Positions 517 through 25,925 of a stretch of 54,237 nucleotides of DNA are shown in pieces. Origin of the DNA: a virus (Duplodnaviria; Caudoviricetes); IMG/VR virus record IMGVR_UViG_3300049830_000086, positions 1 through 54,237 of that record, one strand, 5' to 3'. Position numbers and translations under genes: made by a program. Numbering within the stretch: position 1 is the first letter of the stretch; the number at the start of each line of letters is the position of its first letter. The notes under the pieces were generated by a model. That model did not search any database. It worked only from the letters and a program-made list of their open reading frames with translations, and had not been told where the DNA came from.

Positions 517-1349
517 TTACATCTCAATACCGTGAGTCGAGTACCACCATTCTTTAGTTTGATTAGGATGCTTAGGCAGTAAAGCCTCGTATCTCTCTTT
601 CATTCTAGACTGGCGATTGACTTCAGTTATAAACAATGGATGATCCCAAGTAAAGCCTTCTTTGACCATTTGTCTTAGAAGTCTCTTAAGAACGTAACCC
701 TGGTTTTTGTGACCTGGCTTGTATCCACTATCTACTATCTTCACGATTACATCTTTGAGGCACTCTTCCCTAGTCTTAGGTAAAGTACCGTTGATCAGCT
801 TATCCAGCCTTTCAAAACCAAAACCAACATCTATGCAAGTTCCTAAAGGGTTGACAATGTTACCAATCTCAATGCCTTGGGAATAGAACTCTGTGCAGTA
901 ACCTCCGATCTCACCATCCGTCCATTTGCATTCTGGATCTAGCCTTACTTCATGTTTGTGTAGGTCAGCCCAATTAGGACAGTCTGGATGGATTGTAACA
1001 TAGTCTACCTTCAATTGGCACAGGTCTAAAAAACCAGTCCAAAAGTCGATAGCTTGTTTAACAGTCCAGTCTCTGAATGAGAATAGGCCCATCATCTCGA
1101 AGTGTCCAAGATGTGTACCGTCTCCCATAAAGTCGAAGTCGTTTAGCCTAATACAAGATTGTACGTTAGCTAAGGTTATGCCTTTGTATGACTCGTCTTT
1201 GAACTGATTCTTGAACTGCTGCATTCCAGCTGGACAGAATAGTGTAGTCTCATCATACGGGTTTACTGTGTTTACCGGTTTATAAGGAATGCCGTGTTTC
1301 GTACAGTAATCGAAATACAGTTCCTTTACATTGCGTTTAGCGGTGTCAT
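517..1349 (-). CDS. alaS: Minimal alanyl-tRNA synthetase catalytic core; 5' end frameshifted (ORF track start 1224, SD-led ATG at 1349 is in another frame)
   Basis: DETTLFCPAGMQQFK, QSCIR, HxxxFEMMG, EIGNIV, IDVGFGFERL and GYVLKRLLR match AlaRS class II motifs; no editing or C-Ala domains. Confidence 0.8.
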
Positions 1350-5212: not shown

Positions 5213-6378
5213 TCGTAATCTCGAACAGTTTCCAAGACTGGGGTCAGTGGAATGCCATACTTGCTGTATTCACCAAAGGTTATACTTCCAAGCTTACCAA
5301 CTAGCTTAAGACGGTTTTTCCACCAATCCTTAGCTCGCTCCATATTTCCTTCAATGCCTGCAGCTGAGGTATCCTGTAACTTGCCTGCACTGTTTATCAC
5401 AGGTTTAGGTAGTTTGAATATCACTCGTTTAGCACATCCTTTCCAATCTGCGTCACCTTCCTGGATTTCAACGATTTCAAATTCTTCGGTGATCCAGTTT
5501 TTGTATTTCAACAGAGTATTGGTACGCTTATACTCATAGGTACAGTCACCCCAACGGATGATGATACCTTCGCGAAGAGCAGCCTTACTTTCAGCAAGTA
5601 TAGCATCGATCTCTTCTAATGTATTACAGACGGTGTATTTTAACACCTTCACGAACTCGTAACCTTTGAGCAACTTCTGCAACGCTTTACGGCGTTCTAC
5701 AAAAGGAGTCTCAGGCGTGATACCTTCAAAACCAAAACCATCATAGATGTGGTATTGCACGATCTTACGACTAGAGGCCAGCACTTCAGGAGTTACATCC
5801 TTAGGTTTCATGGCGACACTAACTAGCTTAACCAAATCTCCTAGATCAATTCTGCCTTGAGCATTGATTAGCTTAGGATTAAACAACTCACCATCCAGAT
5901 AGAGATCAGGATACTTTTTGTAGAGTGGAGCCAGTTCTTCCTGGATATGCGCTAAAGTATTGAACTGTTTGTTCTTACGGCTACGAGGATCATTGGCTTT
6001 AGTCCAACAACGCACACCATTCAACTTATCATCTACGTAAGCTGGTAACGTGATCTTGTCTTTGTAGTCCCTGAAGTCCTTAGCACGCATAGGCTCCTGG
6101 TAACCCGTTTCGTCAACGTCGTCACTTTCAAGAGTATAACCGTGCGTGAGCTTATGATCGAACTTAGATTGAGCCTCCGACAACGCTTGTTTTTCTGCAC
6201 TTGTTTCATTTTTCTTTCCTGCATTCTTAGTCTCGGCTGTGCTAGGTTTAGTTTCGGTTAGCTTGCCTCCGACTTGCCCGCTGATAGAGTAGTATTCAGA
6301 ACCATCAACTATCATCGTCCACTGTTGTACTTTTCCCGTATGAGCTCGTTTGAAGAGTGTCGGGAATGTTTTTTTCAT
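5209..6378 (-). CDS. ATP-dependent DNA ligase
   Basis: KLNGVR (motif I), LDGELF, YHIYD, EGIIIR, LLKYK, C-terminal OB-like region. Confidence 0.9.
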   Translation of the reverse strand: MKKTFPTLFKRAHTGKVQQWTMIVDGSEYYSISGQVGGKLTETKPSTAETKNAGKKNETSAEKQALSEAQSKFDHKLTHGYTLESDDVDETGYQEPMRAKDFRDYKDKITLPAYVDDKLNGVRCWTKANDPRSRKNKQFNTLAHIQEELAPLYKKYPDLYLDGELFNPKLINAQGRIDLGDLVKLVSVAMKPKDVTPEVLASSRKIVQYHIYDGFGFEGITPETPFVERRKALQKLLKGYEFVKVLKYTVCNTLEEIDAILAESKAALREGIIIRWGDCTYEYKRTNTLLKYKNWITEEFEIVEIQEGDADWKGCAKRVIFKLPKPVINSAGKLQDTSAAGIEGNMERAKDWWKNRLKLVGKLGSITFGEYSKYGIPLTPVLETVRDYE

Positions 6379-6380
6379 AT

Positions 6381-6842
6381 TTATAAATCTGGGGATAGTT
6401 CCCTTTTCGGAACTTGATTGGCATCTAAAGCTGCGGTTTTCAACCTCATAGACTCCAACAATCTTTCTTGTACTAACCTTTTGAAAGTATCTTCGTCTGT
6501 TGCAATATGCGTCCAGCTTCTTCCTAGGAACTCACTCATACTATCGTTAGTAGCATCGTCCACTTTAGTCCTAAGCTTAGCTTCAAGCATAGCTTGCATA
6601 GCAGAACTGACAGGAGATAACATAGCGATGTTTTCCCAAGTTCTACACTTATGCCTGTTAATTTGGCTACTGAGGATATAGGTTGCGTTATTGACTTCAA
6701 CGTTGTCACCATAGCCATCAGAGATGAGGTGACGAAGGTATGACAGAAGATATTCAGCAGATTCAAGCTCTGCAAGTCTAGTCCGTAAATGGACTTCAGC
6801 ATCAAGCATGGAAGCTCTGCGTTCGTTTTTAGTTTTACTCAT
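6381..6842 (-). CDS. Hypothetical protein, C-terminal KRELSPDL (start moved to MSKTKN)
   Basis: The longer ORF start overlaps tRNA-Gln. Confidence 0.6.
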   Translation of the reverse strand: MSKTKNERRASMLDAEVHLRTRLAELESAEYLLSYLRHLISDGYGDNVEVNNATYILSSQINRHKCRTWENIAMLSPVSSAMQAMLEAKLRTKVDDATNDSMSEFLGRSWTHIATDEDTFKRLVQERLLESMRLKTAALDANQVPKRELSPDL

Positions 6843-8481: not shown

Positions 8482-8590
8482 TTGCCAGGGAAATCTTGTG
8501 AGACGGTGGCATCCAATTGCCAATCCCCGCATCAAGAGCGGGGACTTTGATTCGAACAAAGAAGAACGTCTTACGATGCACCACTGACAA
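8482..8590 (-). ncRNA. Y RNA (YrlA)-like element with permuted tRNA module
   Basis: Paired ends TTGTCAGTGGTG/TTTCCCTGGCAA; T-arm CTTTG-TTCGAAT-CAAAG, closed acceptor hairpin TCCCCGC/GCGGGGA, then D-like arm. Confidence 0.7.
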
Positions 8591-8593
8591 AAG

Positions 8594-8669
8594 TGGAGCC
8601 AGAGGACGGGGTTGAACCGACGACCTTCGCTTTACAAAAGCGTTGCTCTACCAACTGAGCTACTCTGGC
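8594..8669 (-). tRNA. tRNA-Thr(TGT)
   Basis: Loop TTTGTAA; U73; CCA. Confidence 0.93.
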
Positions 8670-13713: not shown

Positions 13714-13725
13714 AATTTTGTAATC

Positions 13726-13881
13726 ACTAGGGAAAATCGAATCAAGACTTGGGACAGTTAAGCCCACTCTAGGACCAATGTGTCTGCCAATTCCACCACC
13801 TCTCCGTCTATGGAGAGGGCAGGGCTCGAACCTGCAGCTGTCGGTTTATGTAAGATGAACCTCGATTCAGGCACCACTAGT
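13726..13881 (-). ncRNA. Y RNA (YrlA)-like element with permuted Leu-type tRNA module
   Basis: ACTAGTGGTG...GTTCATCTT...TTTTCCCTAGT; T-arm GCAGG-TTCGAGC-CCTGC, acceptor hairpin CTCTCC/GGAGAG, D-arm GGTGGAATTGGCAGACAC. Confidence 0.75.
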
Positions 13882-13887
13882 AAAAAT

Positions 13888-20256: not shown

Positions 20257-21546
20257 TCAACGTGTTACGATCGCAGTAAATCCATTGCCTCGTGCTTCAT
20301 ACATCTTTCTTTTTCCAGATACACGAGTGTTGAGAAAATGATCAATTCTTGCTTTAGGTACGGCAGGAAACGCAGTGTAAATGTCTTCCTTAGTTTTGAC
20401 AACGGCTTCTTTGAGGAGGAAATCCTTTATAGCGGTATCTACACGATTGCCTTTTCCTTTACCACAACCTTTTCCTGTTAGCTTGGCATTCCAAGTCGAT
20501 ACTGGTGGTCGGTAGGTTGGGTCCGACTGTTGTATACAGGTTACCATCTTGTCCAACTCCATAGTCATATTGATGACTTGTTCCTTGAACCCGGCTGTTT
20601 GCTCTGTCAAAAACTTTTGTTTTAACTCAGCAATTCTCTTTTCTTCATCTTGTATTTTTTGCCATTGTGTGGCAGCTTCAGGTGTCATAAATCGTTTAGG
20701 TATAAATATGTAAGGTTTATAGTTTAGTGTGCGTCGTAAGCTTAAGTCATCCCATTTTACGTGCACGTATCTGTCTTCGTCGATAGTGATAGGATTAAAA
20801 AGCTCTATGCGGTCTTCAAATCTGTTACTTAATAAATCAGTATCAGATAGCATTTTATTGAAGACTTCAGAATCGTTAGTGCCAAATAACCAACACCATT
20901 TAAGTTTATCTCTAGGATCTGAGATCATCCAATGACGGTAGTATTGTTTTTCTACAATCATATCTGTCAGCGGGTAAGCTTCTGCAATAGATGCTCCGGC
21001 GCGATACGCACCTAAGTTTCGGCAACATTGATTAAAATTTACTCGAACTAGCAGATCGAACTCTGGAAATTTATCGCGATAGAGTTTAACTGTTTTTGAC
21101 GATGGGGCTCCGTAAGGATCAGAGACTACCAATCCTTTTGAGTATTTAGCGCTAATGTCGTTAAGAACGTAGTCCGCTGAGTTATCTCCACGTTTAATAT
21201 GTAGAGGGTAACTTTTGTCTTTTGCAATGTTAATTGCTCTAACTTTTAATGTTTCGGCAGCATCAAGATCATATTCGATAGCAATTATCTCTGTAGACAG
21301 CTCAGGATGATGCTCAAACAGTCTCATAGCTTGCAGAGGTGTACCAAGTATCTCCTCGACAGTACCATTGTTATGTTTGATCACATTGTAACCACATCCT
21401 GCATTGAGCTCACATAACGTGTACTCTTTTGTTTGCATAGCATGGATATGAGACAAGATAATCTGCGGGTACTCTTTTATTTTATCAAGTGTCGATAAGC
21501 TAGTTTTACTAAATGATAACAGCTTATCTTTTTCATGTTCATGCAT
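20257..21546 (-). CDS. TcmP-like (three-Cys-motif partner) methyltransferase-fold protein (start moved to MHEHEK)
   Basis: K......Y, ELNAGCG, GTP, IE.D, GD, DPYG motifs. Confidence 0.55.
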   Translation of the reverse strand: MHEHEKDKLLSFSKTSLSTLDKIKEYPQIILSHIHAMQTKEYTLCELNAGCGYNVIKHNNGTVEEILGTPLQAMRLFEHHPELSTEIIAIEYDLDAAETLKVRAINIAKDKSYPLHIKRGDNSADYVLNDISAKYSKGLVVSDPYGAPSSKTVKLYRDKFPEFDLLVRVNFNQCCRNLGAYRAGASIAEAYPLTDMIVEKQYYRHWMISDPRDKLKWCWLFGTNDSEVFNKMLSDTDLLSNRFEDRIELFNPITIDEDRYVHVKWDDLSLRRTLNYKPYIFIPKRFMTPEAATQWQKIQDEEKRIAELKQKFLTEQTAGFKEQVINMTMELDKMVTCIQQSDPTYRPPVSTWNAKLTGKGCGKGKGNRVDTAIKDFLLKEAVVKTKEDIYTAFPAVPKARIDHFLNTRVSGKRKMYEARGNGFTAIVTR

Positions 21547-21550
21547 AAAT

Positions 21551-21624
21551 TGGAGCGGATAGCGGGAATCGAACCCGCTCAGTGACATTGGAAGAGTCAC
21601 AGGCTACCATTACATCACATCCGC
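21551..21624 (-). tRNA. tRNA-Gly(TCC)
   Basis: Loop CTTCCAA; U73; CCA. Confidence 0.9.
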
Positions 21625-24702: not shown

Positions 24703-24834
24703 TTGTGGGGAAAAACGTCACAAAGGTTTACGCGCTCTAGCCAATTGAGCTACCTGCCGATAGTCGGCAGGGAAGGGCTCGAACCTCCAACCTCGATCTC
24801 CATAAGATGAACTTTGTAACTTACACCACCACAA
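24703..24834 (-). ncRNA. Y RNA (YrlA)-like element, array copy 1, permuted tRNA module
   Basis: GTGGTGTAAG...GTTCATCTT; T-arm GGAGG-TTCGAGC-CCTTC, acceptor hairpin CTGCCGA-CTA-TCGGCAG, D-arm GCTCAATTGGCTAGAGC; 3' TTTTTCCCCACAA. Confidence 0.8.
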
Positions 24835-24841
24835 AGTGAGC

Positions 24842-24930
24842 AGATAGGGAAAAGCGGACCAACGTTTGCCCCTTTCGGAGCTGGTTTCATTTGCAGTGAA
24901 GATGAACGTCGGGATCCTACACCACTATCT
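24842..24930 (-). ncRNA. Y RNA-like element, array copy 2 (short, no tRNA module)
   Basis: AGATAGTGGTGTAG...GTTCATCTT...TTTTCCCTATCT with paired termini. Confidence 0.7.
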
Positions 24931-24939
24931 AAATTGAAC

Positions 24940-25042
24940 TGCAGGGAAAGTCGAAACAAGAATTGCGGATTTGAACCGCTAAGCCCGGGTTTTACGCCAG
25001 GTTCTTAACCAATAAGATGTATCTCATTTCTACGCCACTGCA
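24940..25042 (-). ncRNA. Y RNA-like element, array copy 3
   Basis: TGCAGTGGCGTAG...TACATCTT...TTTCCCTGCA; internal anticodon-like hairpin and T-arm GCGG-TTCAAAT-CCGC. Confidence 0.7.
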
Positions 25043-25059
25043 AAAGTGTTTGACGGGAA

Positions 25060-25186
25060 GAGGGGAAATCAGCAACGAAAAGTTTGTCACACGTCCTACC
25101 AACTATGTGACGAGGTTTTAACTATATCCTCTCGACTTACGCCGTTTAGCTTTCGCCAAAGATGAACTTCGTTTGCTTCGCCACTC
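25060..25186 (-). ncRNA. Y RNA-like element, array copy 4
   Basis: GAGTGGCGAAG (GNCGAAG consensus)...GTTCATCTT...TTTCCCCTC; multi-hairpin insert. Confidence 0.7.
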
Positions 25187-25196
25187 AAAATTGAAA

Positions 25197-25324
25197 GACA
25201 GGGAAAATTGAACTAACATTGTTTCTGTGCTACCATTACACTACCCCGGCATAAAGCCAGGGCTAGGATTCGAACCTAGACTAGTCTTTTGAACGAAGAT
25301 GAACGTCAATTCTACACCACTGTC
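25197..25324 (-). ncRNA. Y RNA (YrlA)-like element, array copy 5, permuted tRNA module
   Basis: GACAGTGGTGTAG...GTTCATCTT; T-arm CTAGG-TTCGAAT-CCTAG, acceptor CCCTGGC/GCCGGGG, D-arm GTGTAATGGTAGCAC; 3' TTTTCCCTGTC. Confidence 0.8.
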
Positions 25325-25341
25325 AAAAATTCTAGTTCGTG

Positions 25342-25597
25342 TGGTACCGGATAATCGAACAATCCCCGGCTGTTTTAAGTACAGTAACTTGCTAGGTAAC
25401 CCTAGCGTGCTTTCGCACTCCAGTTATATTAGCTCAAAACCAAAACTACTGTGGACTGTACTGGCTGATTGCTCTTTAGTGCATATAGCCTAGCTCTGAG
25501 AGAACACTGGGACTCAGTTGATTAGCGACTGACCGGACCTAGGACCGGTGCTGCTACCTTAAGGTAGCTACCCTGTTTAACAGCTGTCTAACCTCCC
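25342..25597 (-). ncRNA. Unidentified multi-stem structured RNA (~255 nt)
   Basis: Closing stem GCTGTT/AACAGC; hairpins GCTACCTTAAGGTAGC, ACCGG..CCGGT, GTGCGAAAGCAC, GCTAGG..CCTAGC; long-range AGTACAGT/ACTGTACT. Confidence 0.5.
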
Positions 25598-25601
25598 TAA
25601 A

Positions 25602-25925
25602 TTATTTGACCGGCACTAACTTGTAAGATACGCCATCCATCACTATGATAGCCTCATTGTAAGAGGATTTACCGGCTGTTACACTATGGTTGATGGTGCC
25701 TGTATTTGTGTCACCCGTACCAAAGTAGTAGATATAGTGGTAGTGTGTGTCTTGCACATTGTTGATCTTGATGCAATACAATGTCCGACCATCTGGCATA
25801 GTGCACATGACTGTAGGACATTGTGCACTAGCTTGATTTTGAGCGTTGATCTCTACCGGATCTCGCACACAGCCTGCAAGAATTAGTAGAGCAACGACGC
25901 TGAACAGTAATAAGTAATTTTTCAT
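25602..25925 (-). CDS. Lipoprotein
   Basis: MKNYLLLFSVVALLILAGC lipobox. Confidence 0.7.
   Translation of the reverse strand: MKNYLLLFSVVALLILAGCVRDPVEINAQNQASAQCPTVMCTMPDGRTLYCIKINNVQDTHYHYIYYFGTGDTNTGTINHSVTAGKSSYNEAIIVMDGVSYKLVPVK

Follow-up and report, generated by a model that had tools for sequence, protein, structure and literature searches.

Y RNAs normally dock onto the Ro60 protein, and together the two form a conserved, poorly understood RNA-surveillance system. To our knowledge, that of Thermus phage phiLo is the only phage Y RNA system that has been studied biochemically. Its Ro60 binds two RNAs, Yrl1 and Yrl2, as well as the host PNPase, whose activity is damped (available text of PMC12135203, 2025). 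The window analysed here is a whole IMG/VR virus record (IMGVR_UViG_3300049830_000086; 54,237 bases; Duplodnaviria, Caudoviricetes), with a CheckV completeness estimate of about 25% of the genome, and contains seven units that resemble Y RNA genes, five in a tandem array and two dispersed. Taken as a whole, and including the mechanism proposed below, the reading of these units as genuine Y RNA genes, carried by a large uncultivated freshwater phage, is given a probability of about 75%.

The bacterial RNAs YrlA and YrlB of Salmonella Typhimurium and Mycobacterium smegmatis (family RF02553; PMC4201824, with the structure in Wang et al., 2018, bioRxiv 10.1101/312249) are among the closest described relatives in architecture. 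YrlA shows two modules, as the window units do: an Rsr-binding stem in which the 5' end pairs with the 3' end, and an effector module, which in YrlA is a permuted tRNA. YrlB is a companion RNA without a full tRNA mimic, a type that is also found in the window set. Salmonella and Mycobacterium have two Y RNA genes, whereas the window has seven and shows no adjacent rsr-rtcBA operon. In the available text of these two sources, YrlA and YrlB are made by processing of a precursor and accumulate as separate RNAs bound to Rsr (PMC4201824), effector binding or gating of the ring is ascribed to the inserts (PMC4201824; bioRxiv 10.1101/312249), and Yrn1 of Deinococcus radiodurans is evolutionarily distant from the YrlA RNAs (both sources). 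The likeness to the Yrn1/RYPER system is restricted to the functional model as described, in which the Y RNA links Rsr with an exoribonuclease and acts as a gate of the ring. Among phages, YrlA RNAs are listed beside Ro in 22 genomes (PMC4201824, Table S2), and the accessible part of Iyer et al. (2021, PMC7824862) mentions jumbo-phage TROVE proteins "with a tRNA-like partner". The RNAs of phiLo, by description, are phage-encoded and Y-like, with a stem-bulge-stem structure and a CGAA-type motif, and in this they resemble the window units; phiLo has two of them directly upstream of the phage Ro60 gene, in contrast to seven without a Ro60 gene nearby in the window. The available text on phiLo mentions no tRNA cluster. 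Thus YrlA RNAs beside Ro are known from phages, and the unusual trait of the window is the setting of its units in a tRNA cluster.

The minus strand of the window shows, from 25324 to 24703, five head-to-tail units of 89-132 nucleotides (nt) each, separated by 7-17 nt; their scaffold recurs in two dispersed units, at 13883-13724 and 8590-8482. The putative Y RNA units are the following:

Unit A, 25197..25324, minus strand: 128 nt; handle GACAG-U-GG-UGUAG ... UUUUCCCUGUC; permuted tRNA-like domain as insert, with a T-arm, a closed acceptor-like stem and a D-arm.
Unit B, 25060..25186, minus strand: 127 nt; handle GAG-U-GG-CGAAG ... UUUCCCCUC, the only one with a strict GNCGAAG; short terminal stem of 3 bp, strong second stem and an insert of four hairpins.
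Unit C, 24939..25042, minus strand: 104 nt; handle UGCAG-U-GG-CGUAG ... UUUCCCUGCA; the three hairpins of the insert follow the normal order of a tRNA: D-like, anticodon-like and T-arm GCGGUUCAAAUCCGC.
Unit D, 24842..24930, minus strand: 89 nt; handle AGAUAG-U-GG-UGUAG ... UUUUCCCUAUCU; two small hairpins (minimal, YrlB-like).
Unit E, 24703..24834, minus strand: 132 nt; handle UUGUGG-U-GG-UGUAAG ... UUUUUCCCCACAA; permuted tRNA-like domain (YrlA type).
Unit F (dispersed), 13724..13883, minus strand: 160 nt; UUACUAG-U-GG-UGCCUG ... GUUCAUCUU ... UUUUCCCUAGUGA; permuted tRNA-like domain with a long extra arm.
Unit G (dispersed), 8482..8590, minus strand: 109 nt; UUGUCAG-U-GG-UGCAUCG ... UUCUUCUU ... 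AUUUCCCUGGCAA; T-like, acceptor-like and D-like hairpins, with a fold z of -3.2.

The scaffold shows a fixed order: a unit-specific terminal stem of variable length (3-7 bp), a bulged U, an invariant GG:CC, the GUGGYGWAG/UUUCCC internal loop, in which YGWAG stands asymmetrically opposite about UUU, a second stem and the junction UUCAUCUU. In the array units the 5' block is GUGGYGWA(A)G, the 5' strand of the second stem runs into (G/A)U(U/A)CAUCUU, and the 3' block UUUCCC is followed by the complement of the 5' terminus. These complementary termini differ in each unit: GACAG/CTGTC in A, GAG/CTC in B, TGCAG/CTGCA in C, AGATAG/CTATCT in D and TTGTGG/CCACAA in E. The pattern GTGGYGWARN{5,20}CATCTT gives five matches in the window, all of them in the array, and none in 100 shuffled sequences. 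When folded, the five array units show paired ends, the bulged U, GG:CC, the asymmetric loop and a second stem of 9-11 bp (z from -2.2 to -3.2), and in all seven units the two ends pair into a bulged helix with a conserved motif on its 5' strand, as expected of Y RNAs. A preliminary description, made from the DNA alone, had proposed five tandem units with these shared motifs, TTTCCC included, and with self-complementary, covarying termini; each of these traits was found again, and its mention of "seven copies" is accounted for by units F and G.

The scaffold of the window units covaries strongly. In the alignment of the seven units 89.0% of the cells pair, compared with 71.2% in shuffles (none of 500 shuffles reaches 89.0%), although the structure scored was derived from the same seven sequences. 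Both sides have changed at 12 of the 19 pairs, and sliding one partner by 1-3 columns lowers the pairing to 42-52%. A wider alignment of 25 units (19 linked to rsr, five from the window and one from a metagenome contig, L247), which was fitted to the model and so favours the structure, shows 96.0% of cells paired compared with 66.9% in shuffles, and 81 cells with changes on both sides compared with 22.7. None of the 25 units shows any variation in the handle's three G:C pairs. Contigs from metagenome runs of several studies, on freshwater sediment and on freshwater, contain the sequence of the window without differences, and therefore these contigs provide no natural variation on which covariation could be tested.

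These data bear on the possibility that the units are decaying relics of a Y RNA array captured from a host, with or without rsr, whose function has been lost. The lack of a nearby rsr, the degenerate handle motif of F and G and the weak terminal stem of B would all suit such relics. However, seven paralogues with unrelated stem sequences have kept their pairing by compensatory changes, the sequence is unchanged in freshwater runs of three further studies, and the phage contig L247 keeps the scaffold with a different and still complementary terminal stem, all of which makes decay very improbable.

The handle is also found in arrays adjacent to rsr. One genome of each of 185,579 prokaryote species (GTDB) was scanned for two successive handles, GTGGYGWAG..TTTCCC..GTGGYGWAG, which gave 102 loci. 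Most of these are chance matches; a TROVE gene is nearby in two of the 102 (tblastn), and Pfam TROVE is present in two of the five genomes checked. Units bearing a T-arm occur in only two loci, the same two with TROVE: L150, from a metagenome-assembled genome (MAG) of Rhizomicrobium, with seven units, and L177, from a Phenylobacterium MAG, with four units. Both arrays lie directly upstream of rsr on the same strand, and their units have the form stem-GGUGGYGWAG-stem2-(U/A)(U/A)C(U/A)UCG ... (G/U)UUCCCC-stem with differing inserts. In L177 the palindrome TTGCATTATGCAACAAG occurs twice, at 5939-5955 and 6506-6522, before the first and the fourth Y RNA, and may be an operator or promoter element. 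Five loci in Alistipes MAGs (L151, L174, L182, L203 and L230) show a tandem repeat of about 135 nt, ...TTGAGGTGGCGAAGTAGCGCCAC...TATTTCCCATTC..., which matches the handle pattern; TROVE is absent from the two Alistipes genomes checked, one holding L151 and the other L203 and L230.

Caulobacter phage CcrColossus (JX100810) shows eight units upstream of its TROVE gene gp139 with the model of this analysis, and three YrlA RNAs are listed there beside the Ro gene in Table S2 of Chen et al. (2014, PMC4201824). Like that of the window, the array of CcrColossus is phage-encoded and head-to-tail, with one shared handle (stem-GGUGGCGUAG-stem2-UACUUCG ... GUUCCCC-stem) and differing inserts, several of them permuted tRNA mimics. 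Its array is located 46 nt to 1.2 kb upstream of its own rsr, whereas the window has no rsr within 24 kb on one side and 29 kb on the other. Every strong match in the 280-kb genome of CcrColossus falls in that one array (L241, 3003-4196, minus strand), in contrast to the two dispersed copies of the window, and the window motifs UUCAUCUU and UUUCCC are variants of UACUUCG and GUUCCCC. The annotated 'tRNA-Gln' of CcrColossus (109217-109284) falls inside one Y RNA unit and is therefore probably the tRNA-like domain of a Y RNA. The gp139 protein is 65% identical to the Rsr of the Phenylobacterium locus, a genus of the same order as the phage's host, which fits capture of rsr and its Y RNA array from the host lineage.

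Two covariance models were built without any window sequence: R1 from 11 bacterial rsr-linked units and R2 from 19 rsr-linked units, including those of CcrColossus. The E-values of both are rough, with a shortened calibration. The four best matches of R1 in the window are E (31.8 bits), C (25.5), A (23.0) and D (20.0), with E-values from 2.3e-5 to 0.011, followed by lower scores for F (15.2), G (11.8) and B (9.7). R2 matches E with 46.4 bits (5.2e-10), A with 31.5 (3.7e-6), C with 31.0 (4.8e-6), F with 28.6 (2e-5) and D with 24.0 (3.2e-4); these five of the seven units, all with E-values of at most 3.2e-4 to RNAs encoded beside rsr, are recovered at full length with borders within 1-2 nt of those drawn by eye. 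The comparison shows that the window handle is, as judged by sequence and model, homologous to the handle of Y RNA arrays immediately upstream of Ro60/Rsr in bacteria and CcrColossus. The preliminary description had proposed Y-RNA-like genes of modular build, in which a Ro60-type handle is constant and the inserts can be exchanged, and the presence of the same handle upstream of TROVE in Rhizomicrobium, Phenylobacterium and CcrColossus bears this out. Short profiles of the handle, made from the bacterial units and run with nhmmer, reached E-values of 1.1 or higher, with four of the five array units in the top six; these matches were too weak and were not used.

The inserts differ in their likeness to tRNA. 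The Rfam YrlA model aligns the whole of unit E (35.9 bits, E-value 9.7e-6) and the core of unit A, with T-arm, closed stem and D-arm (21.6 bits, 0.13); a permuted tRNA-like domain is also recognised in F and G from sequence and fold, and is missing in B and D. Unit C keeps the normal order, and its Y handle occupies the place of the acceptor stem in a tRNA-like fold; its T-arm is seen in the R1 alignment and its anticodon-like arm in the three-hairpin fold, while its match to Rfam tRNA-Sec (17.4 bits, E-value 3.2) is at noise level. The hairpins of B and D are seen by folding only. This distribution agrees with the preliminary description, which had assigned permuted tRNAs to E and A, an anticodon-like arm plus T-arm to C and unrelated hairpins to B and D. 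The possibility that the units are tRNA genes or pseudogenes was rejected: none of 31 ARAGORN calls and none of 31 Rfam calls falls in 24703-25324, 13724-13883 or 8482-8590. The tRNA-like parts share with the phage's own tRNAs only T-arm matches of 15-18 nt, so they are not copies of them.

This tRNA likeness raises an alternative, already suggested in the preliminary description as tRNA decoys or sponges for host tRNA-targeting enzymes, in which the units act independently of Rsr as tRNA mimics or decoys: the scaffold would serve folding, stability or processing, and the inserts would soak up host enzymes that bind or cleave tRNA, protecting the 31 tRNAs of the phage. The record has no rsr, the units are located inside the tRNA cluster and four or five of the seven mimic tRNA, as decoys would. 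However, units B and D have no tRNA-like part and yet keep the full handle, and therefore the conserved, selected part is the handle; the same handle is located directly upstream of rsr in three independent genomes, and a huge phage with a unit embedded among tRNAs (LR745206.1, see below) encodes TROVE. Decoys without Rsr are accordingly judged unlikely.

Several points, besides the rough E-values and the dependence of both alignments on the structure scored, weigh against the reading of the units as genuine Y RNA genes. R2 is weak on G (12.1 bits, E-value 0.37) and on B (9.5 bits, 1.8), and three R2 matches of 18.6-21.5 bits, above G and B, overlap pairs of adjacent tRNA genes; the artefact in which the T-arm of one tRNA is joined to the D-arm of the next is described in the available text of Chen et al. 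(2014, PMC4201824). The strict motif GNCGAAN0-1G is present in only one of the seven window units, and likewise in none of the 19 rsr-linked units; the relaxed GNYGWAN0-1G is present in five of seven and 16 of 19, respectively. The search with the Rfam YrlA model, which the preliminary description had put forward, yielded matches to E and A, but both are below the gathering score of 69 bits. All nine YrlA matches in L150, L177, L241 and L247 (27.2-45.9 bits) are also below 69, and eight of these are adjacent to rsr (three of them in CcrColossus) and one is in L247. Since rsr-adjacent reference units are below gathering as well, the Rfam threshold does not speak against membership of the window units.

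A further point is the missing partner. Pfam TROVE gives no candidate in the six frames of the 54-kb record, tblastn with two bacterial Rsr proteins finds nothing in the window, and a profile of three Rsr sequences against the 329 stop-to-stop frames of the window gives a best E-value of 0.56, in agreement with the statement of the preliminary description that no Ro60/TROVE gene is visible. A hidden Ro60 was considered in two ORFs (open reading frames) without family, of 447 and 671 amino acids (aa), and rejected, with no hint of a TROVE or vWA domain in either. No unit of the record is located at about 4 kb or less from an rsr on the same strand, the location used by Chen et al. (2014), and the published set and the three reference arrays all have their Y RNAs at 4 kb or less from rsr. 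The record represents about a quarter of the genome and about three quarters are unseen, so the absence of rsr is limited to the sequenced part. Most likely, the gene of the Rsr partner is in the unsequenced 75% or so of the phage genome; otherwise it would be a gene of the host.

A more radical form of the second case is that the phage has no Ro60 at all and that its seven Y RNAs, produced from the tRNA operon, are an RNA-only takeover kit that loads onto host Rsr and, by way of Rsr, onto PNPase or tRNA-binding enzymes. Each insert would address another host partner, and host RNA surveillance and tRNA-directed defence would be redirected or blocked during infection. This is regarded as doubtful.

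A precedent for the distance between the units and rsr is found in LR745206.1, an uncultured phage of 634,780 bases and the only cultured or deposited phage record with DNA similarity to the array. It shows one full-length unit at 369033-369172 (L265, 5976-6115; R2, 33.7 bits), located 1 nt after a tRNA-Gly and 3 nt before a tRNA-Ala, on their strand and within a stretch of 13 tRNAs, and it encodes TROVE about 126 kb away from this unit. Over 76 nt its tRNA-like part shares 76% identity with unit A, and unit D has exactly the same terminal stem, AGAUAG/CUAUCU. LR745206.1 differs from the window in having a single copy rather than seven and in showing AG:CU where the others have GG:CC. No description of this unit was found in the literature searched. 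Near its TROVE gene neither R2 nor Rfam gives a unit; in this region (L266, 4088-5539), a gap of 576 nt upstream of that gene shows handle-like sequences by eye with a weak fold (z -0.8), and their reading as a Y RNA unit is suggestive only.

A metagenome scan gave 23 loci, of which only L247 was judged real. This 1-kb contig contains two tandem units with the phage-type scaffold (R2, 20.2 and 52.5 bits), one minimal and one YrlA-like, and, about 290 nt beyond the second unit on its downstream side, a tRNA gene. The handle of the YrlA-like unit resembles that of unit A, with a different terminal stem that is nonetheless complementary, and the flanking ORFs of L247 show no homology to the window. 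Two pattern scans of IMG/VR were treated as yielding chance matches: in 20 of 64 parts at least 119 loci were found, with a terminal stem of at least 4 bp in one, unconvincing, among the matches listed, and in the whole collection 15 loci were found, none convincing by eye.

The tRNA cluster of the window extends from 433 to 28,657 and has 31 genes, each of them on the minus strand (31 ARAGORN calls and 31 Rfam tRNA calls), and the array, F and G are all located within it. Unit G begins 3 nt downstream of tRNA-Thr (8594-8669). The array is preceded by one further feature:

Non-coding leader, 25325..25601, minus strand: 277 nt between the ORF at 25602-25925 and the array; fold z of -2.55 and no Rfam match.

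The sole sigma-70-like site on the minus strand upstream of the array is at 26044-26015, beyond the leader, and no promoter or terminator signal was found on the minus strand inside the array. In a full-text literature search, no account was found of Y RNA genes that are located in a phage tRNA cluster and distant from rsr.

The same setting could suggest that the units are cis-acting structures of the tRNA operon transcript, either for processing (nuclease entry or stop sites) or as spacers, and not stand-alone RNAs. The 3 nt between G and tRNA-Thr, the LR745206.1 unit flush between two tRNAs and the failure to find an own promoter or terminator would agree with this; nevertheless, the homologous bacterial units are located upstream of rsr outside tRNA operons, and the discrete, Rsr-bound YrlA and YrlB in the cited text of PMC4201824 are themselves processed from a precursor, so that a purely cis-acting role is considered highly unlikely.

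If the seven units are Y RNA genes, as preferred here, they would be part of a long minus-strand transcript of the tRNA cluster, to judge from their position, and tRNA-processing nucleases would release them. Release in this way would be plainest for G and the LR745206.1 unit because they are flush with tRNAs. By analogy with described Y RNAs, the handle would dock onto the Ro60/Rsr ring. The inserts would bind effectors; those of A, E, F and G are permuted tRNA mimics, that of C is a tRNA-like fold with three arms in normal order and those of B and D are plain hairpins. They may connect Rsr with different partners or control access to its cavity, and the best-documented partner of this kind would be host PNPase, as in phiLo.

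The remainder of the record shows a replication module containing a family A DNA polymerase with a UDG domain, a DnaB-like helicase, a primase, a RecA-like protein, SbcCD-like proteins, a Cas4-like exonuclease, a DNA ligase and HNH endonucleases. No close relative was found among cultured phages, with at most 26% identity for the window DNA polymerase, and none in IMG/VR with the 447-aa ORF or the DNA polymerase as query. At the edge of the tRNA cluster, a 235-aa ORF (517-1224, minus strand) matches tRNA-synt_2c, of the alanyl-tRNA synthetase family, with an E-value of 4.6e-13 over profile positions 38-128 only, and is, as judged by this match, a fragment or an editing-type protein. No Pfam or PHROG family was assigned to the 447-aa ORF (20257-21600, minus strand), which is inside the cluster; the Atlas suggests clusters of 'three-Cys-motif partner protein TcmP' for it, with scores below 0.9, as a lead only. 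The sequencing runs listed as carrying the window sequence include no RNA run. In one of them, run X1, the similarity of another contig (3,857 nt, depth 90) is restricted to the scaffold motifs of unit D, at 24846-24866 and 24899-24925 with one mismatch each, and the sample may contain a second Y-RNA-bearing element.

The handle consensus is common to the window, the alphaproteobacterial arrays and the CcrColossus array, and the Rfam gathering score used in standard annotation misses every unit of these arrays, including those adjacent to rsr. On the reading preferred here, a phage could possess a large and diversified set of Y RNAs, with seven genes comprising four permuted mimics, one normal-order fold and two minimal forms. 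Y RNA genes could also be wired into a tRNA operon instead of beside rsr, an arrangement that could give them mature ends in a simple way and may connect their function with the supply or repair of tRNA.

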